Below are positions 16,144-49,325 of a stretch of 64,000 nt of DNA, one piece after another. Origin of the DNA: Candidatus Saccharimonadales bacterium (GTDB lineage Bacteria > Patescibacteriota > UBA1384 > 2-12-FULL-50-11). The translations under genes and the position numbers were made by a program. The notes under the pieces are model-generated. The model ran no database searches. It was not told the DNA's origin and was given only the letters and a program-made list of their open reading frames with translations. Numbering within the stretch: position 1 is the stretch's first letter; every line of letters starts with the position of its first letter. The stretch spans positions 21,514-85,513 of the forward strand of contig DATIHX010000003.1 in assembly GCA_035480235.1 (NCBI GenBank). Reading direction: 5' to 3'.

Positions 16144-16271
16144 AAGAAAATGCCCAGGTATACCTGGGCTTGGTGTGGCATTTAGTTCCGCTGTCCAGGG
16201 GCGCCCCACCGGGCGTCGAGGGTATTGTAACCGACTAAAGCCCGCCGGGCTAATTCCGCTACAATGGGGCT

Positions 16272-17804: not shown

Positions 17805-18161
17805 TTAAGAACCCGGGATCAGTGAGGTACCGACGTAGCGCAGAATAACGTAGGCCACCAGAATAACGATAATACCGATGATGGCGTTAATAATGCCGGT
17901 CCGGGCCTTGGTGGCTTTCTCGGCGTCGCCGCCAGCAGTGATGTATTGGAAGCCAGCGATCAACAGATAAATAAAGGCCGTTAAAGCCGCGATGGTTAAG
18001 AGGATGCCGATAATTGTCCCCACTAGAGTGTTCAGGTTAGTAGTTTTGAGCGGATTCAAAAAGTTGAACTGATCGAGATTGAAGTTGCTGCCGTTGGAAT
18101 TAACCACACCGCCTGTACCAATCTGCGCGTGCGCTCTGCCAATAAAGTTGATGAGATTCAT
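17805..18161 (-). CDS. TrbC/VirB2-like (T4SS pilin family) small membrane protein, paralog a
   Basis: 118 aa with two TM helices flanking YITAGGDAEKATKARTGIINAIIG. SD GGAGGG lies upstream. Confidence 0.7.
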   Translation of the reverse strand: MNLINFIGRAHAQIGTGGVVNSNGSNFNLDQFNFLNPLKTTNLNTLVGTIIGILLTIAALTAFIYLLIAGFQYITAGGDAEKATKARTGIINAIIGIIVILVAYVILRYVGTSLIPGS

Positions 18162-18236
18162 TTAATTATTCCGCCCTCCAAATTTGATTACTTACTTATA
18201 TTGAAAACTATTAGGTTGTTCTGTCAAGCCCTATCG

Positions 18237-18788
18237 TCAATTCGGCAAGCTGGCGCCGCCCTGCAATATCGTGTTGACGATGCTAATGATGGTGTAGGCC
18301 AGTGCCGCTAAAACCAAACCAATAATTGCTTGGGTGATGACTTTTTTGGCTTGGGTGGCCTTGCTGTCGTCGCCGAAAGCAGTGATATAAATAAACGCGC
18401 CGTAGAGCAAGTAAAAGAAGGCCACAACGCTAACAATCAACGCCAAAAAGCTCGTATAGAAACTGATACCGGCGCCCAAACAACTAAAATCGGCGTTTTG
18501 AGCGGCGTCGGCGCTGCGCAAAAACGGCGGCAACAGGCCGTCGGCTTTAAAGACTTCGGCCGGGTTAAATTTGCCGTCGCAAGTAGCGGCCGTCCCGGCT
18601 GGGGTGGTGGAGGTTGAGTTGGTTGTCGCCGGCGCAGCTGGGGCTTTGGTCGAGCTATTACTAGATGTGCCCGACGAGCCGTTTAAAAGTGGGTTATCTT
18701 TAAGGGCGCCCAGATCGGCCCGAGCCGCCATCGGCAATGCTAAAAATACTATCACCGCCAAACTCACGATAAGGTCTTTAATCTTCAT
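18237..18788 (-). CDS. TrbC/VirB2-like pilin paralog b with a Ser/Thr-rich N-terminal extension
   Basis: Signal peptide, S/T/A-rich linker and Cys pair, then YITAFGDDSKATQAKKVITQAIIG between two TM helices. ATGA overlap with the upstream gene. Confidence 0.65.
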   Translation of the reverse strand: MKIKDLIVSLAVIVFLALPMAARADLGALKDNPLLNGSSGTSSNSSTKAPAAPATTNSTSTTPAGTAATCDGKFNPAEVFKADGLLPPFLRSADAAQNADFSCLGAGISFYTSFLALIVSVVAFFYLLYGAFIYITAFGDDSKATQAKKVITQAIIGLVLAALAYTIISIVNTILQGGASLPN

Positions 18789-19756
18789 GGGATAACAAAT
18801 TTTATTTCGAGCGTTGAGCCGTCGCTGCCCGTAAAGGTCACCGTCGCCGACTGGCCGGGCTTACCGCCGCCCAAATATTGGATATTGACGCCTTGCGGTT
18901 CACTGTAGTTATCGGCTGAGAAAATTAGCGTCGTGTCGCTGAGACGCAGGGCGAGACTGCCGGCGATACTAGCTCTTACGGTCACCGTGCCAGTTGGTTG
19001 GTTGTTGAGGGTGACGCCGTACGGGTGGTTGAAACTTTCAGCTCGGTTGGTAATGGTGACGGTGTCGCGGCTGGCGGTATTGTCGGGGTCGGCGATCGAC
19101 AAGCCGTATTTGGCGTCGGCTGGTGCCGTCGGGGCGGTGGTATCAGCTGAGGTGACCAGCGTGCCGTCACTTCGGTAACCGGTGAGCAAACCGTCGGAAT
19201 CGACGCAGCCTTGAGGCGTCTCGGAAACGCAAGGGTTATAGTAGCTACCGTCAGGATTTTGGGTGCCGATTTTTGGGTTGGTGGCTTTAGTATTGCCGTT
19301 GCCGGCTTGAGAACTAGCGCTAGTGCCGGAATTGGAAGTTGTGCCAGCCGTCGAAGCGACCTTCGTTACCCAACCGACGATCGCGTAGGACAAGAGGGCA
19401 ACCACCACCCCAATCAGCGTGTAAAGGATGCTTTTGCGGGCTTTTTCGGCTTTGGCGGCGTCGCCACCGGCGGTGATATACATCATCCCCGCCCAAATCA
19501 GGGCGATAAAAGCGGTTAAGGCTAGAGCGATAAAAATGTCTTTAATTATGGTGACAAAGAGTTGATCAAGCGCGATTGGGTTATTGGGCAGCGTCGGCAC
19601 CGGCTGAACGCCACTGGTCGGCGAGGGAGCTGAGTTGGTTGCCCCACTAACGCCGTTGACTACGCCGCTGCCGACATTGGCTTGGGCTAGAGCGGTCGTG
19701 GCTAGCGTCAGGGCGGCTACTAACGCCACGAAAGCCAGGGTGAGTTTCTTCATCAT
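18785..19756 (-). CDS. TrbC/VirB2-like pilin paralog c fused to a roughly 190-aa C-terminal extracellular domain
   Basis: Signal peptide, pilin core YITAGGDAAKAEKARKSILYTLIG, then an S/T-rich linker and a beta-rich domain (...TVTVRASIAGSLALRLSD...TVTFTGSDGSTLEIKFVIP). Confidence 0.65.
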   Translation of the reverse strand: MMKKLTLAFVALVAALTLATTALAQANVGSGVVNGVSGATNSAPSPTSGVQPVPTLPNNPIALDQLFVTIIKDIFIALALTAFIALIWAGMMYITAGGDAAKAEKARKSILYTLIGVVVALLSYAIVGWVTKVASTAGTTSNSGTSASSQAGNGNTKATNPKIGTQNPDGSYYNPCVSETPQGCVDSDGLLTGYRSDGTLVTSADTTAPTAPADAKYGLSIADPDNTASRDTVTITNRAESFNHPYGVTLNNQPTGTVTVRASIAGSLALRLSDTTLIFSADNYSEPQGVNIQYLGGGKPGQSATVTFTGSDGSTLEIKFVIP

Positions 19757-20079
19757 TGGATTTGAAAGAGCGGTAATAAAACTTTAACTAAAACCAGCAG
19801 CGCGAAACCGATCACCGCGCCGACGATGGTGTCTTTGGCGTCTTTAACTTTGCCGTCATCACCACCGGCCGAGAGGTACTTAAAAGCGCCCCACAACACC
19901 ATGAGGATGGCAAGAGCAAAGGCGATGTTGATGGCTTCGCCGAACAGGGCGACTAAATACGCCGAGAAAGAGCCAAAGCAATGAGTGCCGTGAAGTGCTA
20001 GGCCAACGTAAAACTGTTTATCGGTACAACCAGTTGCGGTGTTTTGAGCGAAGACGGTTGGCACTAATAATTGCCACAT
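19753..20079 (-). CDS. TrbC/VirB2-like pilin paralog d
   Basis: 108 aa. YLSAGGDDGKVKDAKDTIVGAVIG between two hydrophobic helices. Start and stop are coupled to both neighbours. Confidence 0.65.
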   Translation of the reverse strand: MWQLLVPTVFAQNTATGCTDKQFYVGLALHGTHCFGSFSAYLVALFGEAINIAFALAILMVLWGAFKYLSAGGDDGKVKDAKDTIVGAVIGFALLVLVKVLLPLFQIQ

Positions 20080-23207: not shown

Positions 23208-23220
23208 CAATTATTAATAG

Positions 23221-29170: not shown

Positions 29171-30232
29171 ATGCCCTTAACGACGCTCAAATTAGAGAAC
29201 GTCCGAGCCTTTGAGCGCCAGAGTTGGGAATTTGGCCCCCGTTCGGTTATTCTTGGCGCTAACGGGGTAGGTAAAAGCACAATTATCGAAGCGATCCGCA
29301 TTCTCTCGGTGGGGAAAAGTTTCCGGACCAGTCGGTTCGACGAGCTAATTCGTTTTGAGGCGCCGTATTGTCGGATTATAGGGGAACGCTCGGAAACAGA
29401 GGGTGAAGCCAGCTCTTCGGCTTCGCTCAGAGTGCCTGCGGCAAAAGTTGAGTTTTTCTACGGCCAGCCGTTCGCCGACGCTGCCAAAGAGCGAATTTTA
29501 ACCATTAATAGCAAGCCGGCTGACTGGTTGGGGTTTATCGGCCAATTCCCCAGCGTCCTCTTTGTGCCGAGCGATATCGATTTAGTCATCGGCCCGCCGC
29601 AACTGCGCCGCCGTTACCTCGACAGTATTTTGTGGCAAGTTGACGCCGAGTTTCGCCAGAATTACTTAGATTTCTCACGGGTTTTGCGGGAGCGAGCGGC
29701 GCTGCTTTTTTTACTGAAGATCCGCCGGGCCGGACTGGATGAACTCCAACCCTGGAACGAATTAATTCAACAGCTGAGCGCGGCCATTCAAACTAAGCGG
29801 CAACAGTACATTGAGTACCTGCAAAAGCAGTTGAAGGGGCAGCTCGTGGGCGGCCAAAAAGTGGCCGTGGAGTACCAACCGAATCAAGCTGAGCTAGCCG
29901 CTGTCCAAAACCAAGAAATTCAAAGTAGCCAGAATTTGTACGGCGCTCACCGCGACGAATTGGAAATTTTGCTGGGCGACCGGTCGGCCAGGCGGTTCGC
30001 CTCGCGCGGCCAAACCCGGACGATCGTAGTGATGCTAAAAACCGTTGAGAGCCGGTTTTTAGCCTTCAAGTCCGGCCAGGCACCATTATTACTGCTCGAC
30101 GACATGTTTTCTGAATTAGACGACGAGAATAGCCGCTACCTTTTTGATAGTTTTGAACCAGACTATCAAGTAATCCTAACCTCGATTAAAACGCAACCGC
30201 TCATCAAAGATTGGCAAACCATAAAACTCTAA
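29171..30232 (+). CDS. recF: DNA replication and repair protein RecF
   Basis: Walker A GANGVGKSTIIEAI, signature and Walker B region LLLLDDMFSELD. Follows dnaN. Confidence 0.85.
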   Translation: MPLTTLKLENVRAFERQSWEFGPRSVILGANGVGKSTIIEAIRILSVGKSFRTSRFDELIRFEAPYCRIIGERSETEGEASSSASLRVPAAKVEFFYGQPFADAAKERILTINSKPADWLGFIGQFPSVLFVPSDIDLVIGPPQLRRRYLDSILWQVDAEFRQNYLDFSRVLRERAALLFLLKIRRAGLDELQPWNELIQQLSAAIQTKRQQYIEYLQKQLKGQLVGGQKVAVEYQPNQAELAAVQNQEIQSSQNLYGAHRDELEILLGDRSARRFASRGQTRTIVVMLKTVESRFLAFKSGQAPLLLLDDMFSELDDENSRYLFDSFEPDYQVILTSIKTQPLIKDWQTIKL

Positions 30233-30358
30233 ACACTAAGTTCTAAACTCTAAACAATGCTCCAATTACCAAAATTACAATGTTTAAAACATTCAAAAGT
30301 TATTTTTTTGATTTTGCTTAGAGCTTCGAATTTAGGATTTAGGATTTGTTTTTCCTAA
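30233..30358. repeat. Imperfectly palindromic intergenic element, copy A (central palindrome AATGTTT-A-AAACATT)
   Basis: Central palindrome at 30279..30293. Arms are CTAAGTTCTAAACTCTAAAC... and ...GAGCTTCGAATTTAGGATTTAGGATTTG. Inverted relative to copy B on the + strand, but in the same orientation relative to the flanking transcription. Confidence 0.65.
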
Positions 30359-30643
30359 ATGGAAAAACTTGGTGATTATTTACCAGTTCATCGCCACGGC
30401 ATGTTGGGGCGGATATTCTTGGCCAAACAACTAACCGACGCCGTTCAAGCGCTAGTCCCGGGCGAGTTAAAAGTGGTGATTCGGGCTAAAACCATTACCC
30501 TTAATTGCGCCGAACCGGCCTACGCCAAACGGCTGACGCTGGAACGGCGCAAACTCGAAGCCATCCTCACCCGACTAGCCGGCCAGGGTCATAACTTGAC
30601 GCTGAAAATTCGCACTCACGGCCCGGGAACTACTGATCGCTAA
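30359..30643 (+). CDS. DUF721/DciA-like protein
   Basis: 94 aa in the position after recF that is typical for DUF721. ...VIRAKTITLNCAEPAYAKRLTLERRKL... Confidence 0.6.
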   Translation: MEKLGDYLPVHRHGMLGRIFLAKQLTDAVQALVPGELKVVIRAKTITLNCAEPAYAKRLTLERRKLEAILTRLAGQGHNLTLKIRTHGPGTTDR

Positions 30644-31208
30644 TGAGGAGGGTGGTCTTGGGATCGGCCTGGGCGGTGGCTAAATAGGCCCGGGCGTCGG
30701 TGATCGCTTGGTTATGCTCGGCCTGGTAAGTAGTATTGTCGGTGGACGAGCTTCGGTGATAGATGGTGAGGTTAACGGCTAAAAGCGTGGTTAAGTCGGA
30801 GGAGAACTGGCCCTCGACCCGATAGGTAGCGGTGATGTGAGGGAAAAAGGCCAGCATTGGGTTTTCGGCGGCGCCGCGCGCGCCTGGTAGCTCGCTTTCC
30901 TGAACGTGAACTACTAGCTGCCGGGTAACGAGCGGCCAGATGAAAATTTGCTCATGATCTAAATCGGCTAATAAATCTTTGGGGGCGACGACTAGGCGAT
31001 GATGGCCGGCGTGAAACTTCAGGGTGACCGGCGTGGAGTGACCAGTTTTAAAGTTATCAGCGTCGCTGGTAACTGTGGCCCCGGCTTTCAGGCCGCTATC
31101 AGCGATGGCGGTCACGGTCACACTACCTGGAAAAAATAAGAAAATCAGGACAATAACGACAGCGCCGATGCCGGCCAGGAGCAGGTAGAATTTCAGTTGG
31201 TTTGTCAT
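30630..31208 (-). CDS. Membrane-anchored hypothetical protein (last gene of the T4SS-like operon)
   Basis: 192 aa with an N-terminal TM helix (FYLLLAGIGAVVIVLIFLFF). 1-nt gap to the upstream amidase gene. Confidence 0.5.
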   Translation of the reverse strand: MTNQLKFYLLLAGIGAVVIVLIFLFFPGSVTVTAIADSGLKAGATVTSDADNFKTGHSTPVTLKFHAGHHRLVVAPKDLLADLDHEQIFIWPLVTRQLVVHVQESELPGARGAAENPMLAFFPHITATYRVEGQFSSDLTTLLAVNLTIYHRSSSTDNTTYQAEHNQAITDARAYLATAQADPKTTLLISDQ

Positions 31209-31209
31209 T

Positions 31210-32343
31210 TTAGTGGAGGGCTATCACAACTTCGTTTAAAAAGCGGGTGCCGGGGTCAGAGCGGTGATTTTGGCCGGTCCGTCGGTCGGCCTCTTTATGG
31301 GAAATCACGTTGAACGGTTCCTTGGCCCCCTTATTGCTGGCCAGGATTGTCACGTTGTCTTTGCTGATATTATATTTACCCATCAAGCACTGTACCAGGT
31401 TTATGTTAGCAGTTATTTGAGCCGGCGTTTCCCACTTGTTGGAATCGGAGCTCTCAAAATCGCCTTGGTTTTCAATGCTAATTGAGGTCGCGCCACTACC
31501 ATAGTCTTGGCTGGGCTGGTTATACATGGCAGCGCCGTGGGCAATTTTATTATCAGCCTCATATTGGACGACTTGGCCGGAGTGAAAAACTTCGTACTGA
31601 ACGTCGACGTCCCGGTCGTTGTTATTAAAGTAGTTATATTCGTTATCAATACTGTTCTCATCGGCAGTGTAGTGAAGAATAATCACCTTTGGTGTGCCGG
31701 TGCCGCGGCTTTGGTAGGAAGATTTGGTGAGTATCTTGGGAGTGACGTTCGGGCAAGTCCCGGTGGGTTGCCCGCCCCCGATTATCAAAGTCACATGGGG
31801 GTTTTTCCAGCCGGCTAGAACCTGGCAATCAACAGCTATATCGACATGGTTATAGCCGGCGCCTTGTTTTGACTGAGCGAACGTATCAACAAGCCGGAAT
31901 TCAATCGGTCCATCACTGTTGTACATTTTTTCGAGTTCCGGGATGCGAACGGTAGTGCCGTATGAGTACTGTTTAAAGATGGATTCGTCGATGGCGATGG
32001 AGACGTACGGCGCCTTCTTGGCGATGAAATCAGGCAGAACTTGGACTTTACTGCCCTTCATGTCTTGAGAGCCGCCACCGGTCGGGTCGCAATTCTGACC
32101 CTGCTCATCCTCTTTCCACTTCGGCACGTAAGCAGTGGCTAAGACGTCTGTGATGGTGGTGCCGCCGCTGCCAGTGGCTTTGGCAACGGGCCCGAAATGA
32201 AGCGTGCCAATCAGGATAAACGGCAACGTCAGTGAGAAGATGAAAATCAGCAGCGCCGCAGCGACGACAAAAATAGTCCAGGAGGCGCCCCTTCGCTTCC
32301 CAAGTTTTTTGGGGAACGGCAAGCTGGAAACGGGCAACGGCAT
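31210..32343 (-). CDS. Membrane-anchored peptidoglycan hydrolase: 3D/RlpA-like domain plus N-acetylmuramoyl-L-alanine amidase (Amidase_2)
   Basis: N-terminal TM helix. ...YGTTVRIPELE...FRLVDTF...HVDIAVD resembles a 3D/double-psi barrel. The C-terminal part has VIILHYTA...SISIENQG...ISHKEADRRTGQNHRSDPG. Confidence 0.65.
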   Translation of the reverse strand: MPLPVSSLPFPKKLGKRRGASWTIFVVAAALLIFIFSLTLPFILIGTLHFGPVAKATGSGGTTITDVLATAYVPKWKEDEQGQNCDPTGGGSQDMKGSKVQVLPDFIAKKAPYVSIAIDESIFKQYSYGTTVRIPELEKMYNSDGPIEFRLVDTFAQSKQGAGYNHVDIAVDCQVLAGWKNPHVTLIIGGGQPTGTCPNVTPKILTKSSYQSRGTGTPKVIILHYTADENSIDNEYNYFNNNDRDVDVQYEVFHSGQVVQYEADNKIAHGAAMYNQPSQDYGSGATSISIENQGDFESSDSNKWETPAQITANINLVQCLMGKYNISKDNVTILASNKGAKEPFNVISHKEADRRTGQNHRSDPGTRFLNEVVIALH

Positions 32344-35300
32344 TAGAAGTAGCCTCCGAAGCTAACATAAACGTAGTCAGTTGTTTTAGTCGAGGCCTGG
32401 GTGTAACCCATCCCGACGCGAGGGTTGTTGGCTTCAGCGCTGCCAAAGCCTTCGGCGGCGCGCGGCGCGAAATACTCAACATTGGCCTGACGATAAGTCA
32501 GCACTTGGAGGGGTTTATTAAGATCGGGCACGCCGCCGCCGTAACTCAAAGTGGCGTCGAGCAATTGGCCGGTGAAGTACCGGGCCCAGCCTTCCCAAAC
32601 TTGGGCGTTAGCGTTAACGAACGGCACATTATTATCCCAATCGAACGGGTTTTGGCCGGGCGCCGGGTTGGGGCTAGGCGGGGCGGGGCCGTCAACGCCG
32701 GGCGTGTAACCGTAGCTCAAAGCGTCGCCGCCTTGGTCAAAACTGGGGATAGCGAATTGGTCGACCGGCGGCTGCGGGCACTCGTAAGAAGTACTGTTGA
32801 CACCGAAGAGGTAAATGGCGGCGGCGATGTAAAGGCCGGTCGGCCCAAGACCCAAGGCCGAGGCGATGGCGCCGGCGACGGCGGCGTTAGTGAACCCTGG
32901 CGGAGCGTGAATGGCGGCATCCACTGAGCTGAAAAATTGCTGGCAAGTGGCGCAGACCTGAAGGGCGGTGGTGATGGCCAGCAACGTTAAGCCTGCCTGG
33001 GCTTTGGACAGGGCGGCGACGTTGGCGGCGGTGTGGGCCCCAGCCAAGGCTTCGGAGGCGGCAATTACCGCCTTGCCGCTGGTGTAAAGCTGGTAGACGC
33101 TGCCCGGTGGCAAGTGGAGGGCGCTGTCGGCCCAACCGGTCAGTTTGGCGGCGGCAAAATTGGTGGCCAAGCTATTAACCGACGGGATAATCGTTACCCC
33201 AGCCGGGTTTTTGAGGCTGGCGTCGAAGTTCCAACCGTTTTGGCTGGCGTAAAAAAGCGATTTACCAATGCCGGCTGGCAGCGGCCCGATATTTAAACTG
33301 TGCGATAGCCAGCCGTCGAGGTTACTCCAGGCGCTGACAAATTGATTATCGGTCAAGATGTTTTGATTGGCTTTGGGCAAGGCAAAATAACTAACTAAGT
33401 TGCCAACATCGGCCGAGCTTAAGGGTCCGAGGGTCACGCCCGAACGAGCGATGGCGGCGCTTAAGGCGCTGGCCGAGTCTTTAGTACCAAGAAGTGTTAA
33501 GACCACTTGGGAAGGATCGATCGTGCCGTTATAAAGTTTCTCCAGCGATCCTGGCACGTAAGCCGGATTGATTTTTTTCAACAAGGTGTCCAAGTTATTA
33601 AAGGCGAAAACTTGCAAGACTTGGGCGCGCTCTTGGTCGCTGCCGGTAAACATTGCCTTGGTGAAGCCGGCCGGAATCGTTGGGTCAATCTTGCGGAGGA
33701 ATGAATCGGAAATTTTGTATTGGACAGTTTGACCGGCCTGCTTATTAAGTTCTTGACGGGCCATATCGAGGGTGGCAGGGTCAGGCTTAATACTTGAGGG
33801 GTTGCCGGACGGGTTGAGCAGTAAGTCGGCCTCTTTTTGAACGGCGATCGGGTCGCTGATGCCGAGGGTGTCGCGGAGCTCTTGGTAGGTCAGTTGGCCG
33901 TCGGCCGGTAGATAGGGGTTAATATTTTTTTGCCATTGGCTAAAAGCCAGCGCGCTCAAGCCGGTGCGGTAATCGCCAGTCAGAAACGTCTCGGCGTCTT
34001 GGGTGAATTCTTTGGGCACGCCGGTGGCTTGGACGAAGAAGTTGATCAGTGGTAAGCCTTGGACGACGAAGGCGGGGTTAGTAGGGTTAAGGGCGTCTAG
34101 GCCGGTGTTAAAGAGCCCCTTCACTTGGGTCATTAAGTTGTTGATTTGGGTATCGGTGTAACCGGGGAGCGCACCGCCGATGGCCCGGCCGAAGAGCTTT
34201 AAGCCAGCATCTAGTAGGGCGCCGGTCCGGTCTTTATCATTTTTGGCGGCAATGTATTTAGTGAAGTCGTCAACGGCGAAATTGGCGCCGGCATCGATGC
34301 TGTGACCGGTAATTTTCGTCACCAATTGCAACGCTTGGCCGGCGCCCTGGCCCGTTTTCAGATAATTCAAGAGGCTGGTGAGGTCAGTTTTTTGGTTGCC
34401 GGCGTTGCCGGCATCGGGAATATAGTCGCCGGTTAAGTTGAATTGGGACCAAATTTGGTCGAGCGTCACTTGGCCGAGGTTGGTGTCGCCGACGGTTTTA
34501 ATCAGCCCAGACCCATTTAGGGCGCCCTGCAGGTAGGACTTGATGGTTCCGGTCGGCAAACCAAGGTTAACATCCTGTTCGCTCCAAATTTGGTTGAGGG
34601 CGCCATCGGCCCAGTTGTTGGGGTTGAGATTGGTCAGCCCGAAAAGATCTTTAAATTGGTTTTGGCCGATTTGGGCTAGCAAAGTGGCGGCGCTGGTGTT
34701 ACCGGAAAAACCATTCAGACCAAAGCGCTGCAAGATCAGCGCCAAGCCGTAGTCGTTGCTGGTGCTGCCAGAAACCGAGAAATTACTACCGGTTATGCCT
34801 AGGAGTTGGGCTAGGCCATTGGCGAAAGTTTGTTGGAGCGCTGTCTCGAGTTTTGAGGGGTCGTTAATAACATTTAAGCCGGTGCCTGGCGTCCAATTCA
34901 TCGCCCGATCGATTTCGCCGCCGCCGATTTTCTTCAAGCTGTCGAAATTGCCGGTGAGCATCGACGCAATGTCGGCACCCGAAAGGGCGGTGCCGGCGTT
35001 CAAGCTAAAGAGTGAATTGAGACCACTGGCTGCCAGCGCCGCGACTTGGGTTGAGCCGGCCGTTTTCGGGTTAGCTAGGTAGGTCGCCACCTGGGTGGGG
35101 TCGGCGCCGGCGGCGGCAAAAAGTGAGTGAAGGCCGAGGTTGTTGGTTAAGTCGGTCAAACTGAGGGTGCTGTTGGGGTTAGTTAAGCTGTTAATTAGCT
35201 GTTGAGTGAGGCCGGAGAACTGTGATGGGACGGCCCCGATCACGGCTTTTTGGAAAAGGGTGACGCCGATATTCTTCAGCTCAGTTTCGGCCGTTTTTTG

Positions 35301-41888: not shown

Positions 41889-44287
41889 GCTTCTACCTTA
41901 GGCGGGGGGACGTTTTGGACATGGTCAGCCGGACCACCACCGATAGCCGGCATCTGGTACATTGCTTTTACTAAGTTGCTTTTTTCTTTTTGGTTCATAC
42001 TTTCTATCTTTTTGCCAAGGTCATCCCAATTGGTGGTGGCCGCCGAAATTGTTTGCTCATTTCCGCTGCCATCAAGGTATTTCAGTTCTTGCTTGCCTTG
42101 TTTCACTAAAACCTTTAGCAGGGACTCGATTGAGCCGTTGTAGTTTGGGTTACGGCTACTGCCCAACCAAAACTTAGCGGTATGCATAAATAGCTCAAAA
42201 TCTCTTTGTACTTTAGTGTCTAGGCCAACGGATCGGCCACTAGTAAGCTTTTGCAAGCTAATCGGGTCAATTTTGACAAAGAAGTCTTTATTTTCACGCT
42301 CAAGCTGAGTGATGGAACCGAACTTACGCATTCCTTCTGATTGACCTTCAACACCAGCGTTATAGGCGACGGCTTGCTTCTTCATCTCAGCATCAAAAAG
42401 CTTGCCAGCAACAGAGCCTGAAGCCATGGCCGCCGCCGCCGCACTAATATCAGCATATCCAGCCAAATCGCCATGAGCACCTTTTGCTTCTTGAAATTGG
42501 TCGGCGATCGTCTGTAAATCCGAGGCCGTTTCTTCTCGCAGCTCTTGGAGCGAAGCCTGAACTTGCCAGAAAGCGGGGTTATTGACTCCCAGTCGTGCCC
42601 CTTCGGTTGTTTCTAGGTCGTCAATTTCATCTAACTGCTTGCCGAGATCGTTGTAATCCTTGACTCGCTTCAACACATTAAGCCGCTCGTTGCTGTGATT
42701 ACCAACGATAATACTCTCCTCGGTTTTAAGAGCCTCAGCGTGGGCACCCTCTTCAGAGCTTTCTTTAGCGAAGGCCGCCACAATTCTATTAAGCTCTGGG
42801 TTTTTGAGATTATCGTTAGCGTCTTTTTCGCTGGCTTGAGCTAATAGCCGTAACCGCTCATCATTTTGCTTTTTGCTTTTGCGCTTTTCGGCGGTCGTTT
42901 TTTCGATGTCGCTCATATTAAGACGATTGGCTAATTCTTGGCTAAATGCCTGCGTTGAGCGGTCTGCTTTCATTAAGCCTTCGGCGTTACCGGCGATAGC
43001 CTCATCGTAGCCAAGTTGCCCCTCTCGTAATCCAGCTCGTCCTCCCCGAGCTCGCGTGCCGGCATTTTTGCGGCGGATAGCCAAGTCTTTTTCAAAGTTT
43101 TCTTTACGGAGTTTGTTCCACTCTTGAACTCGGTAAACGCCCGGAATGCGCGCTAAGGCTGCTTTGCCGGTGTTACTGGCCTGTTCGCCAGCAAACTTTT
43201 TAGCGGCGTTGAGGCCGGTGTACTTTTGGAAGCCTTTGGAAACCCTATCAATCACGGCGCCGCCCATTTTGCTTGGTAAGGTCAGGGCCATAAAGAAGAG
43301 CACGTACATTATCAGGACGCTGGCGAAACTTTGGTTGATGGCCGAGGCGTTACCGATGACCAGCATCAACCAGAAGACGGCGCTCATCGCCGGCAGAATA
43401 AACAGCCACTTAATAAATTGCTGCCACCACTGCTTAAAATATTTCTCAAAACCGGGGATACCGTAGGCGATGAAGGCTAACGGCGCCAAAATGGTTAGTA
43501 AGTAAATCGCCACCAACCGAAAATAAAAGAGAAACGATAGCCAGAGCACCAAGATTAAGGCGATCAGTACAAAAATTAGCGCCAAAATCGGCGAAGCGAT
43601 GAAACTCAAACCACCGAGCGTCCCCAGGGTTTTCAAGGTGGTAATACCCAGCCGGCCCAGGACGTCGGCAAAAAAGGCGGCAAACGAGGTGTAGCCCGCG
43701 GCGTTCCCGGCTTTCAGGCCCACGAAAAAGTACGTCGCTACCGAGCTAATATCGGCCATATACTTGACGATTAAGAAGCTAGCGTTGGCTAAAATTACCC
43801 CAATCACCAGGTTGGGCAGGGCTTTTTTGATGGTGTAGGTGTCGATATTGATGCGCAGGATGTTGCTGAAAGAAATCACCAGGAGGGCGATAATCAGCAA
43901 GATATTTATGGCGCCGCGAACTACTCGCCAAGAAATGTACACAAAGCCGTCCGGGTTGCTTAATAGCTGAACCAGCGAGCAGCCTACCTGCGAGGCGCCG
44001 GTGTTATTGGAATTGGGGCAAGTGAAGCCGGGAGCGCCGGGGCTAATTATTGGGCTGGCGCCTCCGATAACACCTGAACCAATATTGCCGCCGGTATTTG
44101 TGTCGGCACCGACACCGCTAGTCACCCCTGAACCGACGCTGCCGCCGGCGCCGCCAGTAACAACACCAGCCCCGCCCGTGACACCAGAACCAAGGCCACT
44201 ACCGGCAGAAGTTTGAGCGCGAGCAGCAGGCACTAAAATTACTAAAAGACTGACCAAAAAACCCAGGAGGATCAAAGCCTTCTTCAT
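41885..44287 (-). CDS. VirB6/TrbL-like polytopic membrane protein with a Gly-rich N-terminus and a roughly 420-aa hydrophilic C-terminal domain
   Basis: Signal peptide, GSG-rich repeats, then about 6-7 TM helices (residues roughly 110-380) and a charged coiled-coil-like tail. Its position next to virB4 and prgI supports the call. Confidence 0.6.
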   Translation of the reverse strand: MKKALILLGFLVSLLVILVPAARAQTSAGSGLGSGVTGGAGVVTGGAGGSVGSGVTSGVGADTNTGGNIGSGVIGGASPIISPGAPGFTCPNSNNTGASQVGCSLVQLLSNPDGFVYISWRVVRGAINILLIIALLVISFSNILRINIDTYTIKKALPNLVIGVILANASFLIVKYMADISSVATYFFVGLKAGNAAGYTSFAAFFADVLGRLGITTLKTLGTLGGLSFIASPILALIFVLIALILVLWLSFLFYFRLVAIYLLTILAPLAFIAYGIPGFEKYFKQWWQQFIKWLFILPAMSAVFWLMLVIGNASAINQSFASVLIMYVLFFMALTLPSKMGGAVIDRVSKGFQKYTGLNAAKKFAGEQASNTGKAALARIPGVYRVQEWNKLRKENFEKDLAIRRKNAGTRARGGRAGLREGQLGYDEAIAGNAEGLMKADRSTQAFSQELANRLNMSDIEKTTAEKRKSKKQNDERLRLLAQASEKDANDNLKNPELNRIVAAFAKESSEEGAHAEALKTEESIIVGNHSNERLNVLKRVKDYNDLGKQLDEIDDLETTEGARLGVNNPAFWQVQASLQELREETASDLQTIADQFQEAKGAHGDLAGYADISAAAAAMASGSVAGKLFDAEMKKQAVAYNAGVEGQSEGMRKFGSITQLERENKDFFVKIDPISLQKLTSGRSVGLDTKVQRDFELFMHTAKFWLGSSRNPNYNGSIESLLKVLVKQGKQELKYLDGSGNEQTISAATTNWDDLGKKIESMNQKEKSNLVKAMYQMPAIGGGPADHVQNVPPPKVEA

Positions 44288-45858
44288 GAGTGAAAATGAT
44301 TAGGCCAACGAGCAGCGAGGGTATCGGGCGGAGGGGCGTAGGAAACACCGGCCGCACTCGTTACTAGTTGCGCCGCCCAAGTAATCGCCGGCTGAAAAAT
44401 TTCAGTAAAAAGGCAGTCGATTAATTGATTAAAGGCTTTACCTAAATCGCCCTGAAAAATTAAATTAAACCCACAGGTGCCGCCGCCGTTACTAATTACC
44501 TGGTTATTAACCTTAATATTCCAATAAGCCGGCCAACCAGCCTTGCTGGCACAGCTACTAGAAAGGTTTGAAGCGGCTCCTTGATCAACAACCGAGTATT
44601 TTTTCTGAATATCTTGGACCGTCTGGCCATCGGGCTTGTCTTTTGGTGGCCCGGTGGTGTAAACACCGCCGTTTAAACAATTCTGGCTGCCATCTTTTGG
44701 TACATCGAGGACATAACCAAAAATCTCGTTGATACTGCCGGGGCCATCATTTGGAATCGCTAGCCCGCCAATATTTGATCCGCCATTACTACCATTAATA
44801 AGAATGGCGCCACCCGGATAAGTATCGTCTTTGAAGACGCCGGTATAGACGCTGGCTTGATCGGTATCGTAAATCAGGTCAAAACAGTCAAAGCTTACAC
44901 TACTACTGGTGCCGCCATTCTTAGCCGAGCAGTCGTTAACCAACAAGTAGAAGTTACTAACAATTTGCGGATTTTTTCCATTACTATCGACTTGATAGGC
45001 TTGAAATATTAACCACTTAACAGTTTTGAATGTAGCCGAGAAACTGGCCGCGACAAGCTTGAAAATTAACGGCGGGCGGCCACTGTCTTTATCGGCGGGA
45101 ACAAAGTTCTTGCCAACAGGTGCAGCGTACGGCGGGTTATTTGGCTGACTTTGATCGGGGATTACTATCCGCAAATTTTTATCGTCGCCGGTAAAAGCAT
45201 CGGTCCATTTCTTGATGTCATCGCCACTTATCGGAGCGGTACTGTTGGGCTGACCATAGTTAGTTACTGGCCGTTCCGGACCACGTGTGAGGCCAGCGAC
45301 CGGGTCTAGGTCGGTGCCGGGGCCGTTACCGTGGGCGGTTTCCCCGCTGCTGCCAAAATGGTCGTATAGGGTGATGGCGTAGCCCTTGAAACTGTTGGCT
45401 TGGCCGACAATAAAACCGTAGCCGGGCGCTGACGGGTTGCTGTAATCATAGGAAATGCTCTCGTTAGCGGCATTAGTAACGGTGATTTTGGAGCTGCCGG
45501 AAAGGGTGACGTGAGCGTTGGCGTTGTCGGTTGACGCCCCCACATTAGAAAAGCTGACGGAACTAATTCCCCAGCGATCTAAATTGCCGGCCGAACCAAC
45601 TTTGTTCAGTGAGATAGAGAGTGTAAATGAGCCTAAGTTATCGTTTTTTAATCCATTTTCGTTAGCCTCCAACCGCCCACTATAAATAATAGTGTTGTCG
45701 TCCGTACGGTTGGCAGAGGGGGTATTAATTGGGGTGAAGAAGTAATCGCCGTGGGCATAAGCTTTTTGAGCCGGCAAAAAAATCGACCAGCTAACCTGAA
45801 GAATAACGGTTAAGGCCACGACAAAACTGGCAAATCTTAGGTAGCCCCCTTTGCGCAT
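44284..45858 (-). CDS. Secreted/membrane-anchored hypothetical protein (first gene of the T4SS-like operon)
   Basis: ATG at 45858 (MRKGGYLRFASFVVALTVILQV...). The ORF track extends to a TTG at 45912. The rest is beta-rich and Cys-containing, with no recognised family. Confidence 0.5.
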   Translation of the reverse strand: MRKGGYLRFASFVVALTVILQVSWSIFLPAQKAYAHGDYFFTPINTPSANRTDDNTIIYSGRLEANENGLKNDNLGSFTLSISLNKVGSAGNLDRWGISSVSFSNVGASTDNANAHVTLSGSSKITVTNAANESISYDYSNPSAPGYGFIVGQANSFKGYAITLYDHFGSSGETAHGNGPGTDLDPVAGLTRGPERPVTNYGQPNSTAPISGDDIKKWTDAFTGDDKNLRIVIPDQSQPNNPPYAAPVGKNFVPADKDSGRPPLIFKLVAASFSATFKTVKWLIFQAYQVDSNGKNPQIVSNFYLLVNDCSAKNGGTSSSVSFDCFDLIYDTDQASVYTGVFKDDTYPGGAILINGSNGGSNIGGLAIPNDGPGSINEIFGYVLDVPKDGSQNCLNGGVYTTGPPKDKPDGQTVQDIQKKYSVVDQGAASNLSSSCASKAGWPAYWNIKVNNQVISNGGGTCGFNLIFQGDLGKAFNQLIDCLFTEIFQPAITWAAQLVTSAAGVSYAPPPDTLAARWPNHFHS

Positions 45859-46006
45859 ACTTTCAGCATACCAGTCGGCGGCGGGGTCGCAATTCCGTTC
45901 AGGTTGACGCAAAACAGCAACGATTTTTTGGCCCTAAAACTAGTGACAAATCGGTGAATTTGTGGTATGGTTGGGGCAATCCAAATTTGTCGGGAGGAAC
46001 GTTAAC

Positions 46007-46666
46007 ATGATTACTACTCAGAAGCCTCGATCAACCTTTAACGCTGTGGCAGGAGGGGCGGTAGTTGGCCTACTCATCCTTCTCGCCTTTGTGAGTATGA
46101 AGGGTACGGCCATGAGGATGGCGGCCGCCAGTCCATACGACCAACCCGAGACTAGCTCGGCACCATTGCCGGCCTCCACCGTGACGTCGGCGGGCACCAC
46201 AACAGGCGGCGCAGCAGCTCAGGTGAGCCTACCTTCCAACCTGCAATTCAGGCCAGAAGGATCAACCCTTCTCGATACCAGTGCGTGGAGTCGGGGCGTC
46301 AACATGGTCGCCTATGGTGGCACAAAGGCTCAACGAAACAACGCCTACAACCAGAATTTCGAAAGTTACTGTTTTGCTGCCGATGGAACGTTTTGGGACG
46401 AGGGCAGATACCTCGACGTCAAAACATCGGGGCAAGGCTTCTATCGAGTTGATGGAAATGTTGTTAAGCTGTTCTTCACTGAGCACTCAACGGGAGACAG
46501 CCCGGACAGCTGGACGCAATATCAGGAGACGAGACTGTATCCGCTCGGCAACGGCTTTACGGCTTTTGACCTTGGGAATACGACGTTCTGCAAGGGGATG
46601 TCGTGGAACCAGCAACATGCTTGTTACCAAAACGATCGCGGCGAGTTATTCGGTCAGACCGATTAG
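46007..46666 (+). CDS. Membrane-anchored/secreted hypothetical protein
   Basis: ATG at 46007 preceded by GGGAGG. One TM helix (AVAGGAVVGLLILLAFVSM). Terminator downstream. Confidence 0.55.
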   Translation: MITTQKPRSTFNAVAGGAVVGLLILLAFVSMKGTAMRMAAASPYDQPETSSAPLPASTVTSAGTTTGGAAAQVSLPSNLQFRPEGSTLLDTSAWSRGVNMVAYGGTKAQRNNAYNQNFESYCFAADGTFWDEGRYLDVKTSGQGFYRVDGNVVKLFFTEHSTGDSPDSWTQYQETRLYPLGNGFTAFDLGNTTFCKGMSWNQQHACYQNDRGELFGQTD

Positions 46667-46686
46667 CTCTAGTGATCATCGACCCA

Positions 46687-46716
46687 GCGGGTTGGAAATC
46701 TCCAACCCGCTTTTTT
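46687..46716 (+). terminator. Rho-independent terminator
   Basis: GCGGGTTGGA (46687..46696), AATC loop, TCCAACCCGC (46701..46710), then TTTTTT. Confidence 0.85.
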
Positions 46717-46810
46717 GATACTTTAGTTTAAGAGCAGTATGACTTGTAGGTCATAACGTGATTTGAATCGAATCGTAGCACGTCACCTATACCGTATGTG
46801 GTTTAGGCTT

Positions 46811-47200
46811 TTACCGCAGTTGCCCGAGCGGCGACGTTGGGTCGATTTTTTGGTCGAGCAGCGGATTCAGCTGTAAGGCCTTGGCTTTTAGTTCGCTGTG
46901 ATAGGCACTAGCCAGGTAGACGGCGTCAGGGTTGGTTGGGGCCAAGGCGTAAGCTTTTTCGACCACTGGCCGCACTAATTCGGGCCGGATTTTGTTGAGG
47001 CGTTTGGCCAGGCTGATCAGGCGCGGCCCGTCGGTTTGGGTGGCTAGGAACGTTTTTAAATCGGCCTGCGTGGCGGCTAAGCTTTTGGTGGTATTGGCGG
47101 CCGCTTGCGCCTGGAAGTCATTCTTTTCCCAATTCCAGAAAGCCAGTAACCCGAGAACAACAATAGCAGCCGGTAAGTAGAGCCAAAAGCGGTTACGCAT
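46811..47200 (-). CDS. Membrane-anchored hypothetical protein
   Basis: 129 aa with an N-terminal TM helix. Overlaps the valS stop by 8 nt. Confidence 0.45.
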   Translation of the reverse strand: MRNRFWLYLPAAIVVLGLLAFWNWEKNDFQAQAAANTTKSLAATQADLKTFLATQTDGPRLISLAKRLNKIRPELVRPVVEKAYALAPTNPDAVYLASAYHSELKAKALQLNPLLDQKIDPTSPLGQLR

Positions 47201-49325
47201 CGAACATCGTTTGGTTAATTTCAGTGACTAAAAACGGTGCGAAGTCGGAGAGGAGCACCAGGAGGCGCTTCAAGCTATCTTGGAGGACGGCTTCGGCTTG
47301 GGCTTTCCGGGTTTCATCGGCCGATTCCAGCAGCACCTTTTTCTCGTATTCCAACAGCTGATCGGCGAAGTCGTGCCAGAAAAATTCGTAGAGTTCCTCA
47401 AGGGCCAAGCCGAGTTTGTAGGTTTTGAAATCTTTGTGATTACTTTCTTCAAGCCTGCTTAATTTTTCCAAGAATTTTTTCTCTGTTTCATCTAGTTGTT
47501 TCGGATTTGGGATTTGGGATTTAGAATTTCCCGTTGAGGCTACGAAACGGGCGGCATTCCAAATTTTTGTCACAAAATTCCGGTATTTGAGCAATTTTGT
47601 CTCGGTATAGCGTTGCGGCAGCCCCGGGCTGTTGCCGCCGATTAAGCTCATCCGCAGGGCGTCGGAGCCGTATTTATCAATTAAAGCTAACGGATCCATC
47701 GTGTTGCCTTTGCTCTTGCTCATTTTTTTGCCTTGATCGTCCAGGATTAGGCCGTGGAAAAGTACCTCTTTGAACGGGATTTCGCCGGTTAGAGCTTGGC
47801 TCATCATGATCATTCGGGCGACCCAAAAAAAGAGAATATCTTGGCCCGTTTCGAGAAAACTCGTCGGATAGTATTCTTTCAGGTCGGGAGCAGTTTTATC
47901 CGGCCAGCCTAAAGTGGCGAGCGGCCACAAGCCGGCCGAAAACCAGGTGTCGAGCGTGTCCGGGTCTTGTTCCATCGCGCACTCGCCGCAGATCGGGCAA
48001 ACTTTTGGTTTTTCCAAAGCAACGATAAATCCTTCATTATTTTTGGGATTTGATTTTTGGGATTTGGTTTTTGCTGACCAGTTCTGGCAGTGCCAGACTG
48101 GCAGCTCGTGTCCCCACCAGAGTTGGCGCGAGATACACCAGTCATGGAGGTTGTTGAGCCAATGGAAATACACTTTCTCCACATTTTTTGGCGTGAATTT
48201 TATATCACCCAATTTAACGGCTTTCAGGGCAGCGTCTTTGAGCTCGGTCGTTTTCATGAACCACTGGGTGGAAATCAGCGGTTCGATAATGGCGCCGGAG
48301 CGCTCCGAAATCGCTACCCGGGCGTTGTAGTCGGTGACTTTTTCTACTAAACCTAATTCCTCGAGCTTTTTGACGATTGGCTCGCGGGCCTCAAGCGCCT
48401 TTAACCCAGCCCACTCGCCAGCTAAGTCGGTCAGCTTGCCGTATTTATCGATCGTTTGAACGACAGGCAGGTTGTGGCGCTGCCCGGCCTCAAAGTCGTT
48501 TTTATCGTGAGCGGGGGTAATTTTAACGGCGCCGGTGCCGAATTCTGGGTCCACAAACTCGTCAGCGATCACGGGTAACTTTTTCTTCTGACCAGTTGCC
48601 AAAACGATTTCAACTTCCTGGCCGACGTATTTTTCGTAGCGCTTATCTTTCGGGTTGACCGCAATGGCGACGTCGCCGAACTGGGTTTCCGGGCGGCTGG
48701 TGGCGACGGTCAGCGGACCGTATTTTAGCCAATACAACTTGGCTGGCCGGTCTTCGTTCAAAACCTCGTCGTCGGAGATGGCGGTTTGCAGTTTTGGGTC
48801 CCAGTTGACCAAGTATTCGCCGCGGTAAATCAGTTTTTTCTCGTACAGCTCCACAAAAGCAGTTTTAACGGCTAGCTGCGAATGCTCGTCCATCGTGAAG
48901 CGGAAATGCCCCCAGTCGGCCGAGAGGCCGAAGCGCTTCAGCGACTCTTTAACCCGTGGCAGATAATGGGCGGTCCAATCCTGAACTTCTTCAAGAAATT
49001 TCTCGCGGCCGAGTTGCGTTCGTGATAAGCCCTTTTCTTTCTGGATTTTCTTTTCCACCAACGCTTGAACGGCAATGGCGGCGTGGTCAGCGCCTGGTAC
49101 CATTAGCACTTTTTTGCCGTGCCGGCGGGCGTGGCGCGCCACGGTATCTTGCAAGCCGTAGGTTAGAGCGTGACCCAGGTGTAAATCACCCGTGACGTTC
49201 GGCGGCGGTATGATAATTGAAAACGGTTCGCCGCTGCCCTTGGGCTTAAATTCGCCAGCCTTTTCCCATTTTTGGTAAATCTCAGCTTCTTTGGTGTGAT
49301 CAAAGCGGGTAGGTATTTCGGTCAT
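47193..49325 (-). CDS. valS: Valyl-tRNA synthetase (short form, 710 aa)
   Basis: Class I motifs HLGHALTYGLQD and KMSKSKGN. Editing-domain motifs TSRPETQFGDVAIAV and GTGAVKITPAHDKNDFE. Confidence 0.85.
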   Translation of the reverse strand: MTEIPTRFDHTKEAEIYQKWEKAGEFKPKGSGEPFSIIIPPPNVTGDLHLGHALTYGLQDTVARHARRHGKKVLMVPGADHAAIAVQALVEKKIQKEKGLSRTQLGREKFLEEVQDWTAHYLPRVKESLKRFGLSADWGHFRFTMDEHSQLAVKTAFVELYEKKLIYRGEYLVNWDPKLQTAISDDEVLNEDRPAKLYWLKYGPLTVATSRPETQFGDVAIAVNPKDKRYEKYVGQEVEIVLATGQKKKLPVIADEFVDPEFGTGAVKITPAHDKNDFEAGQRHNLPVVQTIDKYGKLTDLAGEWAGLKALEAREPIVKKLEELGLVEKVTDYNARVAISERSGAIIEPLISTQWFMKTTELKDAALKAVKLGDIKFTPKNVEKVYFHWLNNLHDWCISRQLWWGHELPVWHCQNWSAKTKSQKSNPKNNEGFIVALEKPKVCPICGECAMEQDPDTLDTWFSAGLWPLATLGWPDKTAPDLKEYYPTSFLETGQDILFFWVARMIMMSQALTGEIPFKEVLFHGLILDDQGKKMSKSKGNTMDPLALIDKYGSDALRMSLIGGNSPGLPQRYTETKLLKYRNFVTKIWNAARFVASTGNSKSQIPNPKQLDETEKKFLEKLSRLEESNHKDFKTYKLGLALEELYEFFWHDFADQLLEYEKKVLLESADETRKAQAEAVLQDSLKRLLVLLSDFAPFLVTEINQTMFDA
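47504..47533. repeat. Element-arm-like tract inside valS, in frame (encodes SKSQIPNPK)
   Basis: GTTTCGGATTTGGGATTTGGGATTTAGAATTTCCCG is collinear with GTTTCGGATTTCGAGCTTAGGACTTAGGGTTTCCCG at 25516..25550. Confidence 0.75.
48040..48074. repeat. Second GGGATTT-type tract inside valS, in frame (encodes KTKSQKSNPKN)
   Basis: TTTTTGGGATTTGATTTTTGGGATTTGGTTTTTGC, located within the Cys-rich insertion WHCQ...CPICGEC. Confidence 0.65.

Follow-up and report, generated by a model that had tools for sequence, protein, structure and literature searches.

A conserved type IV secretion system next to dnaA in a Patescibacteria genome, probably of monoderm conjugative ancestry and serving epibiotic growth

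A stretch of 64,000 nucleotides from the metagenome-assembled genome of an uncultivated Candidatus Saccharimonadales bacterium (assembly GCA_035480235.1, contig DATIHX010000003.1, positions 21,514 to 85,513; the whole stretch is called the window below, and all positions are counted in it) carries a chromosomal type IV secretion system (T4SS) operon with genes for a VirB4-type ATPase, a PrgI/VirB3-like protein and a VirB6-like membrane protein. We interpret the region, with a probability of about 0.85, as the vertically inherited, origin-proximal T4SS of Patescibacteria, which has its ancestry in monoderm conjugation machinery and supports epibiotic growth, not conjugation. By analogy, it may do so by moving proteins or host-derived molecules across the contact with the host. 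An earlier reading of the same DNA (the initial annotation) had likewise preferred exchange with a host cell to conjugation, and this fits the chromosomal site next to dnaA, the synteny in 18 genomes, the conservation of VirB4 and the lack of DNA-processing genes nearby.

The window ORF list contains nine open reading frames (ORFs) at 30630-45912 on the minus strand, all in one direction and tightly packed, as the initial annotation had described. The junctions given there were exact. Neighbouring genes overlap by four bases (ATGA) at 44284/44287 and 41885/41888 and by a single base (TAATG) at 38089, 36758 and 32343, and at 31208/31210 one nucleotide separates them. While the nine ORFs are real, three of their starts belong downstream of the longest-ORF positions, namely ATG 45858 for g542 (giving 524 aa), ATG 41110 for PrgI (148 aa; the strong ribosome-binding site GGAGGGG precedes this ATG) and ATG 40677 for VirB4 (862 aa). 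All three refined starts are backed by ribosome-binding sites and by independent gene calls, those of the public contig CAZWSM010000001.1 (assembly GCA_964636455.1), where the operon products are annotated as hypothetical proteins; with the refined first start the operon spans 30630-45858. Since a divergent plus-strand membrane ORF (45962-46666) and a strong terminator (46686-46711) lie upstream, the operon comprises these nine genes. A head-on orientation of the operon to replication is not claimed, the GC-skew profile of the window not being clean.

The core of the machine is encoded by three of the nine genes:
38089..40677, minus strand: VirB4-type ATPase of 862 aa whose N-terminal part is a TraC-like/TrsD-like domain (Pfam, NCBIfam, Walker motifs)
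40664..41110, minus strand: PrgI/VirB3-like small membrane protein, 148 aa (Pfam PrgI)
41885..44287, minus strand: g800, predicted extended VirB6/TrbL-like polytopic membrane protein (AlphaFold and Foldseek; family matches in homologues)

The VirB4 call of the initial annotation is secure. The protein matched Pfam P-loop_TraG (7e-27) and the NCBIfam model conju_CD1110 (355.5 bits against a cutoff of 325), and it carries both Walker motifs (A, GAGKSY at residue 524; B, LLIIDEGW at residue 729). At its N-terminus NCBIfam TrsD was matched (3.6e-6, residues 34-174 of the long ORF), and the precomputed families of the 862-aa product are TraC-like (PF26593) and P-loop_TraG, so that the module, comprising the first approximately 250 residues, is fused to the ATPase and not separate. 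In many other Patescibacteria VirB4 is about 620 aa long, and in the one such locus examined a separate TraC-like gene adjoins it. The 120 closest database relatives of VirB4 are proteins of Patescibacteria/Berkelbacteria; the nearest plasmid-encoded VirB4 proteins come from Firmicutes and Actinobacteria (26-38% identity, the top match being annotated as CD1110 family), and PrgJ of pCF10 was matched with 25% identity (E 1e-31). We place the ancestry of the system among monoderm bacteria because of the CD1110-type VirB4, its Firmicutes and Actinobacteria plasmid kin, the prgH-I-J-K gene order and the match to PrgJ, a kinship of VirB4 that is drawn from profile and identity comparisons.

The PrgI/VirB3-like protein, also recognized in the initial annotation, matched Pfam PF12666 (6.8e-11), has two hydrophobic helices and is 39-65% identical across 17 related loci. 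The VirB6-like call for g800 was borne out by fold and by homologues, not by its own sequence profile. In its predicted layout, a signal/anchor and a linker rich in Gly and Ser precede about 6-7 transmembrane helices (residues 105-340), and a long helical domain of about 450 aa forms the C-terminal part. An AlphaFold model based on an alignment of 47 homologues (mean pLDDT 77, membrane core about 90) was compared with the PDB using Foldseek, and ranks 1-6 were all R388 TrwI/VirB6 chains (probability 1.00; target-normalised TM-score, TMt, 0.48-0.54; about 260 aligned columns). Moreover, six of the 47 homologues matched Pfam TrbL (best 1.9e-5) and most carry a precomputed TrbL_3 assignment; those with either family are 35-51% identical to g800. 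Sequence searches gave no Pfam match for g800 itself at E up to 10, a hit of the 47-homologue family profile to TrwI among solved proteins only at E 3.9, no significant alignment of the family to pCF10 PrgH (hhalign probability 3.9%) and, for the VirB6 core, no tblastn match among 72,556 plasmids. On the predicted fold and the family matches of homologues, we accept g800 as an extended VirB6.

To place the operon among its relatives, one genome per species was scanned for VirB4 relatives. The scan identified 18 loci, labelled Berkelbacteria, Saccharibacteria or Patescibacteria, with a VirB4 of 59-77% identity, and the gene order, whose conservation the initial annotation had proposed to check, recurs in these 18 species-level genomes. 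Where contigs reach, the shared order is tsaD-leuS-g129-(variable spot)-g542/g800-g243 slot-PrgI-VirB4-peptidase-giant-hydrolase-g192-recF-dnaN-dnaA. In the window, the operon is flanked on one side by recF, dnaN, dnaA and rpmH-rnpA-yidD-yidC, the end of recF lying 398 bp from the last operon gene and dnaA 2.8 kb away, and on the other side by leuS, tsaD, femAB-like and Mur ligase genes and polA. The same housekeeping flanks were present wherever the contig reaches them (11-12 of the 18 loci). Across loci LeuRS is 58-67%, DnaN 47-60% and RecF 42-52% identical, and the extracellular operon products diverge fast (giant 35-40%, g542 22-33%, g192 22-27%). Conservation of VirB4 at or above the level of housekeeping proteins fits an essential role; that it equals or exceeds LeuRS and exceeds DnaN and RecF is unusual for a secretion ATPase.

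Signs of a mobile element were also sought. Window ORFs of at least 120 aa were scanned against protein families, leaving out a few that overlap tRNA genes or larger ORFs, and no relaxase, coupling-protein or integrase family was matched in the 64-kb window, in agreement with the initial annotation, which had seen no relaxase, VirD4-type coupling ATPase or integrase. It had further named att repeats as a sign of an integrative and conjugative element (ICE); no att-like direct repeats were found flanking the operon, and housekeeping genes stand there instead. We conclude that the system is chromosomal, passed on vertically and strongly constrained, and that it is no integrative element.

The variable spot at 45912-46811, between g129/leuS and the operon, differs among relatives. 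In the window it holds the plus-strand membrane ORF mentioned above (219-234 aa, no family match), followed by the strong terminator, and in three relatives (L008, L011, L015) toxin-antitoxin and helix-turn-helix (HTH) genes (PIN, RHH) lie upstream of the operon. The small ORFs found between g129 and the operon in relatives had been considered as pilins and were rejected, being these toxin-antitoxin and HTH genes. The g129 gene itself (46811-47200, minus strand) encodes a 129-aa membrane-anchored protein without a family match, overlaps the end of leuS by 8 nt and is kept at the same place in 12 related loci with 29-46% identity; it could belong either to the T4SS or to the leuS transcription unit.

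The first gene of the operon encodes a protein that is closely linked to g800:
44284..45858, minus strand: g542, 524 aa, predicted membrane-anchored extracellular protein, first operon gene (N-terminal hydrophobic segment; fusions in relatives)

This protein has a single N-terminal hydrophobic segment and gave neither a Pfam nor a PDB-profile match. In six relatives (L007, L008, L009, L011, L015, L016) the homologues of g542 and g800 are fused as single proteins of 1117-1398 aa, and in six others (L001, L002, L003, L005, L013, L014) they are split as in the window. A frameshift artefact as the source of the split was rejected: g800 has its own signal/anchor, and six relatives have the same split. 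Because of this fission/fusion polymorphism, g542 can be tied functionally to VirB6 and is best read as a detachable N-terminal VirB6 ectodomain.

Two slots of the operon encode cell-wall hydrolases:
36758..38089, minus strand: g443, bitopic membrane protein with a C-terminal papain-like peptidase domain (Peptidase_C39_2), in the slot right after virB4 (Pfam)
31210..32343, minus strand: g377, membrane-anchored N-acetylmuramoyl-L-alanine amidase (Amidase_2) (Pfam)

In g443, Peptidase_C39_2 was matched at residues 279-393 (9.6e-9), behind a strong transmembrane helix at residues 121-139. In g377, Amidase_2 was matched at residues 216-365 (4.5e-15), with weak matches to solved amidases. Two of the three murein-hydrolase modules proposed in the initial annotation are thereby supported, and the third, a VanY/M15 module in the giant protein discussed below, rests on one motif. 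A 3D domain that had been assigned to g377 found no Pfam support: the N-terminal half gave no 3D match at E up to 10, Amidase_2 being the only family in the protein, although HMMER filters can drop weak matches. Among 17 proteins in the slot after virB4, NlpC/P60 was found in seven, CHAP in three and C39_2 in two, and in pCF10 the slot after VirB4 holds the hydrolase PrgK. The slot after the giant in relatives contains SLT (5), C39_2 (3), Amidase_2 (2), Glucosaminidase (2), M23 (1) and CHAP (1). Hydrolase modules are swapped between lineages, and the membrane-anchored N-terminal parts of the hydrolase-slot proteins stay alignable despite the swaps (L001-L017, L020). Because these slots hold varied wall-hydrolase modules across lineages, the comparison supports a reading of the C39_2 domain in the window as a peptidoglycan peptidase. 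The two hydrolase slots mirror the hydrolases of Gram-positive conjugation systems (PrgK, CwlT, TraG).

Between the two hydrolase genes lies the largest gene of the operon:
32343..36758, minus strand: g1471, the giant, 1471 aa (full-length conservation; AlphaFold)

The giant starts with a predicted signal peptide, followed by a conserved N-domain (about residues 100-270) and an all-alpha region of about 900 aa. Its C-terminal region (about 1230-1471), also conserved, contains three conserved Cys residues and two hydrophobic helices rich in Ala and Gly. Orthologues in 14 loci align with it from end to end (35-40% identity). No Pfam or PDB-profile match was obtained and BLAST self-comparison detected no internal repeats. 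In an AlphaFold model of residues 1-1200, residues 270-1200 were predicted as continuously helical (pLDDT mostly 70-89) and the N-domain scored below 50; a Foldseek search of this model against the PDB returned only generic alpha-solenoid noise (TM-scores of at most 0.1). The initial annotation could place no motif in about 1000 aa of the giant; about 900 residues are predicted as all-alpha, without a Pfam or solved relative. With the C-terminal region as query, phmmer identified 35 cluster representatives among 1.84 billion proteins. A distant relative of 2459 aa is also encoded inside a T4SS locus, where the genes run TrbL_3, PrgI, TraC-like, VirB4, C39_2 peptidase, PEGA protein, M23 peptidase, giant, with recF nearby. 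The giant family is rare, and all members with an inspectable locus (the 14 related ones and the 2459-aa relative) are found in T4SS loci.

A VanY/M15-type peptidase domain had been proposed for the giant on the basis of a motif in its N-domain. The motif, SPHNSGQAVD (SxHxxGxAxD type), is present at residues 179-188; in the orthologues, G184 and D188 never vary and S179, H181 and A186 hardly do. The second-His motif, 13 residues after SxHxxGxAxD, has the orthologue consensus EKRH and reads EHRL in the window. The N-domain matched no Pfam family, no PDB profile and no phage endolysin (phage genomes were searched for M15 of the endolysin type), and the model confidence in this domain is the low one given above. 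The N-domain is a candidate VanY/M15-type domain, recognized by this one motif.

The remaining two genes are the following:
41157..41888, minus strand: g243, between VirB6-like and PrgI (conserved slot; one weakly hydrophobic C-terminal stretch only)
30630..31208, minus strand: g192, predicted membrane-anchored, beta-rich exported protein, last operon gene (N-terminal transmembrane helix; orthologues in slot)

The g243 product is probably cytoplasmic and had no Pfam or PDB match. Its slot is occupied by a fast-evolving gene of 257-316 aa in 12 loci (9-21% identity). In a sister sub-clade (L004, L007-L009, L011, L013, L015) the slot protein has a conserved HExxH motif (HELGHRxD), and in the sub-clade of the window xEQxxR stands instead; it may be zinc-peptidase-like and active in one lineage and degenerate in the other. 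The g192 product has one N-terminal transmembrane helix, with orthologues at the same slot in eight loci. Its best PDB-profile match, a DUF4352 Ig-like domain (E 0.017), was not significant, and it is the positional counterpart of the ML1 PEGA-domain protein SEML1_0005 (Table S2, PMC10633639). Searches with profiles built from orthologues of the giant, g800, g542, g243 and g192 gave no significant sequence match to a solved protein, and for the products without an assignment nothing usable emerged from Pfam at E up to 10 or NCBIfam at E up to 0.1. Three products for which the initial annotation could place no motif, g542, g243 and g192, are indeed without a Pfam match.

Pilin genes, overlooked in the initial annotation, were found outside the operon:
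17805..20079, minus strand: four VirB2-like pilin genes, 118, 183, 323 and 108 aa (Pfam T4SS_pilin PF18895)

All four products matched PF18895 above the gathering score (1e-10, 2e-8, 3.1e-7 and 3.9e-10), and each has two C-terminal hydrophobic helices. Such an array is the hallmark of the Patescibacteria form of the system. Here it is separated from the operon by 10.5 kb, with dnaA in between, and is followed by Hsp20 (21956-22336), comFC (22349-23071) and tRNA-Ser (23125-23208), the same block as in ML1 (SEML1_0020-0022). The position of this block across dnaA from the T4SS operon, unlike in ML1, implies a rearrangement around the origin. The comFC-like product combines a double zinc ribbon with a phosphoribosyltransferase domain. 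Upstream of the pilins (20079-21449, minus strand), a gene for a 456-aa membrane-anchored protein has a stop codon overlapping the first pilin start and is therefore probably co-transcribed with the array. On the other side, a gene for a PilB-type type II/IV secretion ATPase (16272-17795) adjoins the array, with a dockerin-domain protein (13044-14207) and further unassigned exported proteins nearby; these (13044-17795) are envelope functions of the kind essential in ML1. Further away, glycosyltransferases, two O-antigen-ligase-like (Wzy_C) proteins, a flippase and an epimerase (1215-11753) suggest a surface polysaccharide locus.

A repeated heptamer was observed in this region (AGGATTT type; 11 matches against 0.11 expected). 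It builds imperfect palindromes of about 125 nt at 25422-25552 (yidD/yidC) and at 30222-30352 (between the convergent recF and g192), with predicted RNA folds of -44.4 kcal/mol (z -5.2) and -23.7 kcal/mol (z -3.0), respectively. The same heptamer, repeated in frame, encodes KSQIPNPK in VirB4 (residue 239, in the inter-domain linker) and in LeuRS (about residue 602); the sites outside the palindromes are 39919-39963, 47499-47529 and 48042-48072.

The locus belongs to a type of system that has been described before. McLean 2020 reported that Saccharibacteria and other bacteria of the Candidate Phyla Radiation have a conserved region in which VirB4, VirB6 and PrgI are accompanied by comF and an array of small secreted proteins (PMC7427843). 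For Southlakia epibionticum ML1, Wang 2023 showed by transposon sequencing (Tn-seq) that epibiotic growth requires the locus, and noted its Gram-positive-like composition with pilins and without a coupling protein and relaxase (PMC10633639). Quinonero-Coronel 2025 found a distinct Patescibacteria VirB4 clade related to monoderm conjugation systems, with dnaA proximity, pilin arrays and scarce relaxases (in only 103 Patescibacteria genomes), as well as VirD4-like genes in many genomes, far from virB4 (PMC12102498); a 2025 review ranks the Patescibacteria systems among the newest members of the superfamily (PMC12857230). The novelty implied in the initial annotation does not hold, the same conclusion having been published for ML1 (PMC10633639) and for Patescibacteria at large (PMC12102498; review PMC12857230). 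Its statement that most parts are undescribed is accurate for the giant, g542, g243 and g192 families of this clade and not for the kinds of component, since VirB1-like hydrolases, VirB3, VirB4, VirB6, VirB2-like pilins and the large DD-peptidase protein of ML1 are all published.

The ML1 locus (SEML1_0004-0019), together with the Patescibacteria-clade T4SS of the 2025 survey (PMC12102498), is the closest known system. There, dnaA, dnaN and recF are followed on the opposite strand by two exported proteins, a multi-domain lysozyme/cysteine-protease, a 1113-aa DD-peptidase-fold protein, VirB4, a 293-aa protein, PrgI, two VirB6-like proteins and an NTF2-like protein, and then by six pilins, Hsp20, comFC and tRNA-Ser (PMC10633639). 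The window operon resembles it in standing right after dnaA-dnaN-recF on the opposite strand and in encoding VirB4 and PrgI together with extended VirB6-like proteins, hydrolases of the cell wall and one exported protein of very large size. In both genomes Hsp20, comFC and tRNA-Ser adjoin an array of VirB2-like pilin genes, and in both the cluster is free of relaxase and coupling protein. The two also differ in several respects. VirB4 is one 862-aa protein in the window, whereas ML1 has a 612-aa VirB4 and the separate 293-aa SEML1_0009, suggested as a TrsD homologue by the 2025 survey (PMC12102498). The window has one VirB6-like gene with a split-off ectodomain gene in place of two VirB6-like genes, four pilins across dnaA from the operon in place of six, and Amidase_2 and C39_2 in place of lysozyme-like and cysteine-protease modules, and an NTF2/VirB8-like gene, present in ML1, was not recognized. 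Finally, the giant and the 1113-aa SEML1_0007 have peptidase-like motifs at opposite ends, and no link between them appeared in the phmmer search with the C-terminal region of the giant (35 clusters).

Gram-positive T4SSs of the CD1110-VirB4 type (pCF10, NC_006827; ICEBs1; Tn916) resemble the window system in the order of VirB6-like, VirB3/PrgI, VirB4 and hydrolase genes, the order prgH-prgI-prgJ-prgK(-prgL/pcfC) of pCF10 being matched by VirB6-PrgI-VirB4-hydrolase, and in a monoderm architecture without a VirB7/9/10 outer-membrane core. They are mobile elements, however, whereas the window system is chromosomal, origin-adjacent and vertically conserved. In pCF10, the coupling ATPase PcfC and the relaxase PcfG are encoded within 12 kb of virB4. 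No coupling ATPase, relaxase or accessory DNA-processing gene is found near the window operon, nor is a surface adhesin of the PrgB type. Conversely, the window system has VirB2-like pilins, which Gram-positive conjugative T4SSs do not have, the extra lineage-specific parts giant, g542, g243 and g192, and a VirB6-like protein of 800 aa against 266 aa for PrgH.

Bordetella Ptl, Brucella VirB and Helicobacter ComB differ from the window system in being diderm, with VirB7-VirB10 core complexes and a VirB4 of another clade, and none of them is known to be essential for growth. They share with it a VirB4-centred locus without a VirD4-type ATPase or relaxase and a non-conjugative use (PMC12102498, PMC12857230). 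Taken together, the window contains the features of the Patescibacteria clade, namely a monoderm-type VirB4, adjoining PrgI and VirB6, a TrsD/TraC-like module, a pilin array and dnaA proximity without a relaxase, and the features of a conjugative element (relaxase and coupling protein, integrase and att repeats) were not found in the 64 kb.

Drawing on established T4SS biology and the R388 structure, with the role in host growth taken from the ML1 analogy, the machine could work as follows. VirB4 hexamers would dock via VirB3/PrgI on a VirB6 platform in the cytoplasmic membrane, and the amidase and the papain-like peptidase would open the peptidoglycan locally. The VirB2-like pilins would be pulled out of the membrane, and their polymerisation on VirB6 would yield a tube or pilus reaching the host cell; g542, the giant and g192 would form or decorate the wall-spanning, host-contacting part.

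Several points weigh against this interpretation. The function is inferred wholly by homology and analogy. The absence of a coupling protein and relaxase covers only the 64-kb window, whose contig is at least 395 kb long, and VirD4-like genes are common elsewhere in Patescibacteria genomes (PMC12102498). The pilin genes lie outside the operon, and their link to it rests on the family name and the ML1 precedent. No VirB8-like protein was recognized in the window. Furthermore, g542, g243, g192 and most of the giant are without an assignable fold, so any account of the extracellular architecture is speculative. On its sequence, the machine might export effectors, import host molecules or mainly build an adhesive pilus.

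Helicobacter ComB and the archaeal Ced system work without a relaxase, and ComB also does without a coupling protein. With these as precedent, the T4SS might be run as an importer that brings host DNA, RNA or other macromolecules into a cell unable to make nucleotides, which we consider unlikely. Systems without a coupling protein are covered by a review that also speculates on the uptake of molecules from the host (PMC12857230), a 2026 preprint describes a parasite among the Patescibacteria that feeds on RNA of its host, possible T4SS pili being present where the two meet, and comFC stands beside the pilin array. VirB4 also gave weak NCBIfam matches to CedB (1e-7) and CedD (1e-4), but their scores of 31 and 21 bits are far under the respective cutoffs of 700 and 600, and the matches reflect a shared ATPase fold. 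Deletion of comEC in ML1 ended competence but not viability, indicating that classical DNA uptake is not the essential role (PMC12857230), and the sequence gives no sign of the direction of transport.

In R388, VirB6 forms the base on which the pilus is built. The R388 structures 7o3v and 8rt9, Foldseek matches of g800, would thus also suit a machine for pilus assembly and adhesion only, in which VirB4, VirB3 and VirB6 extract and polymerise the VirB2-like pilins and nothing is translocated; four divergent pilin genes and the lack of a coupling protein in cis within the 64-kb window point the same way. We regard this as improbable: type IV pili already serve adhesion, as shown for host adhesion in Saccharibacteria (PMC12857230), with a PilB-type ATPase encoded in the window (16272-17795), and adhesion alone leaves the conserved giant and the extended VirB6 domains unexplained.

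An ordinary or decayed ICE, with relaxase, coupling protein and integrase just outside the window, would agree with the descent of the core genes from monoderm conjugation machinery and with the limited view of the contig, but it is very improbable and was rejected on the conserved housekeeping flanks, which bound the operon here (recF-dnaN-dnaA and leuS-tsaD) and in relatives and leave no room for element ends, on the lack of an integrase within the 64 kb and on the missing direct repeats; nor do the operon G+C content (0.49-0.57, within or just above the window range), the nine intact ORFs with the VirB4 Walker motifs kept, or the scarcity of relaxases in the Patescibacteria survey (PMC12102498) favour it.

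Within the preferred reading of the locus as an epibiotic-growth T4SS, a more specific proposal, tentative and with the odds against it, concerns the fast-evolving proteins. The giant, with its conserved membrane-proximal C-terminal region, might join g542 and g192 in a conduit that is specific to the lineage, spans the wall, touches the host and serves the VirB4/VirB3/VirB6 core, replacing VirB5 and VirB7-10 of diderm systems. If so, the conduit would be a new structural solution for a monoderm T4SS, beyond another copy of the ML1 system, and the range of host envelopes open to attack would depend on its divergence and on the swaps of hydrolase modules.

The locus is a further example of a published system, and it leaves the picture in the literature unchanged; its additions, the giant family, the g542 fusion and the hydrolase swaps, are modest and lineage-specific. 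It extends the origin-proximal system to a Berkelbacteria-like lineage, at the same dnaA-dnaN-recF position as in ML1, the one genetically tractable species in which the T4SS has been shown to be essential. By comparison across loci, VirB4, PrgI and the membrane domain of VirB6 make up the core, with a conservation equal to or above that of housekeeping genes. The parts that diverge, are swapped, or occur fused and split, namely the giant, the ectodomain of VirB6 and the hydrolase modules, are likely host-facing. Patescibacteria, ultra-small and for the most part uncultivated, form a very large group, and their T4SS offers one of few molecular handles on their host-bound life.

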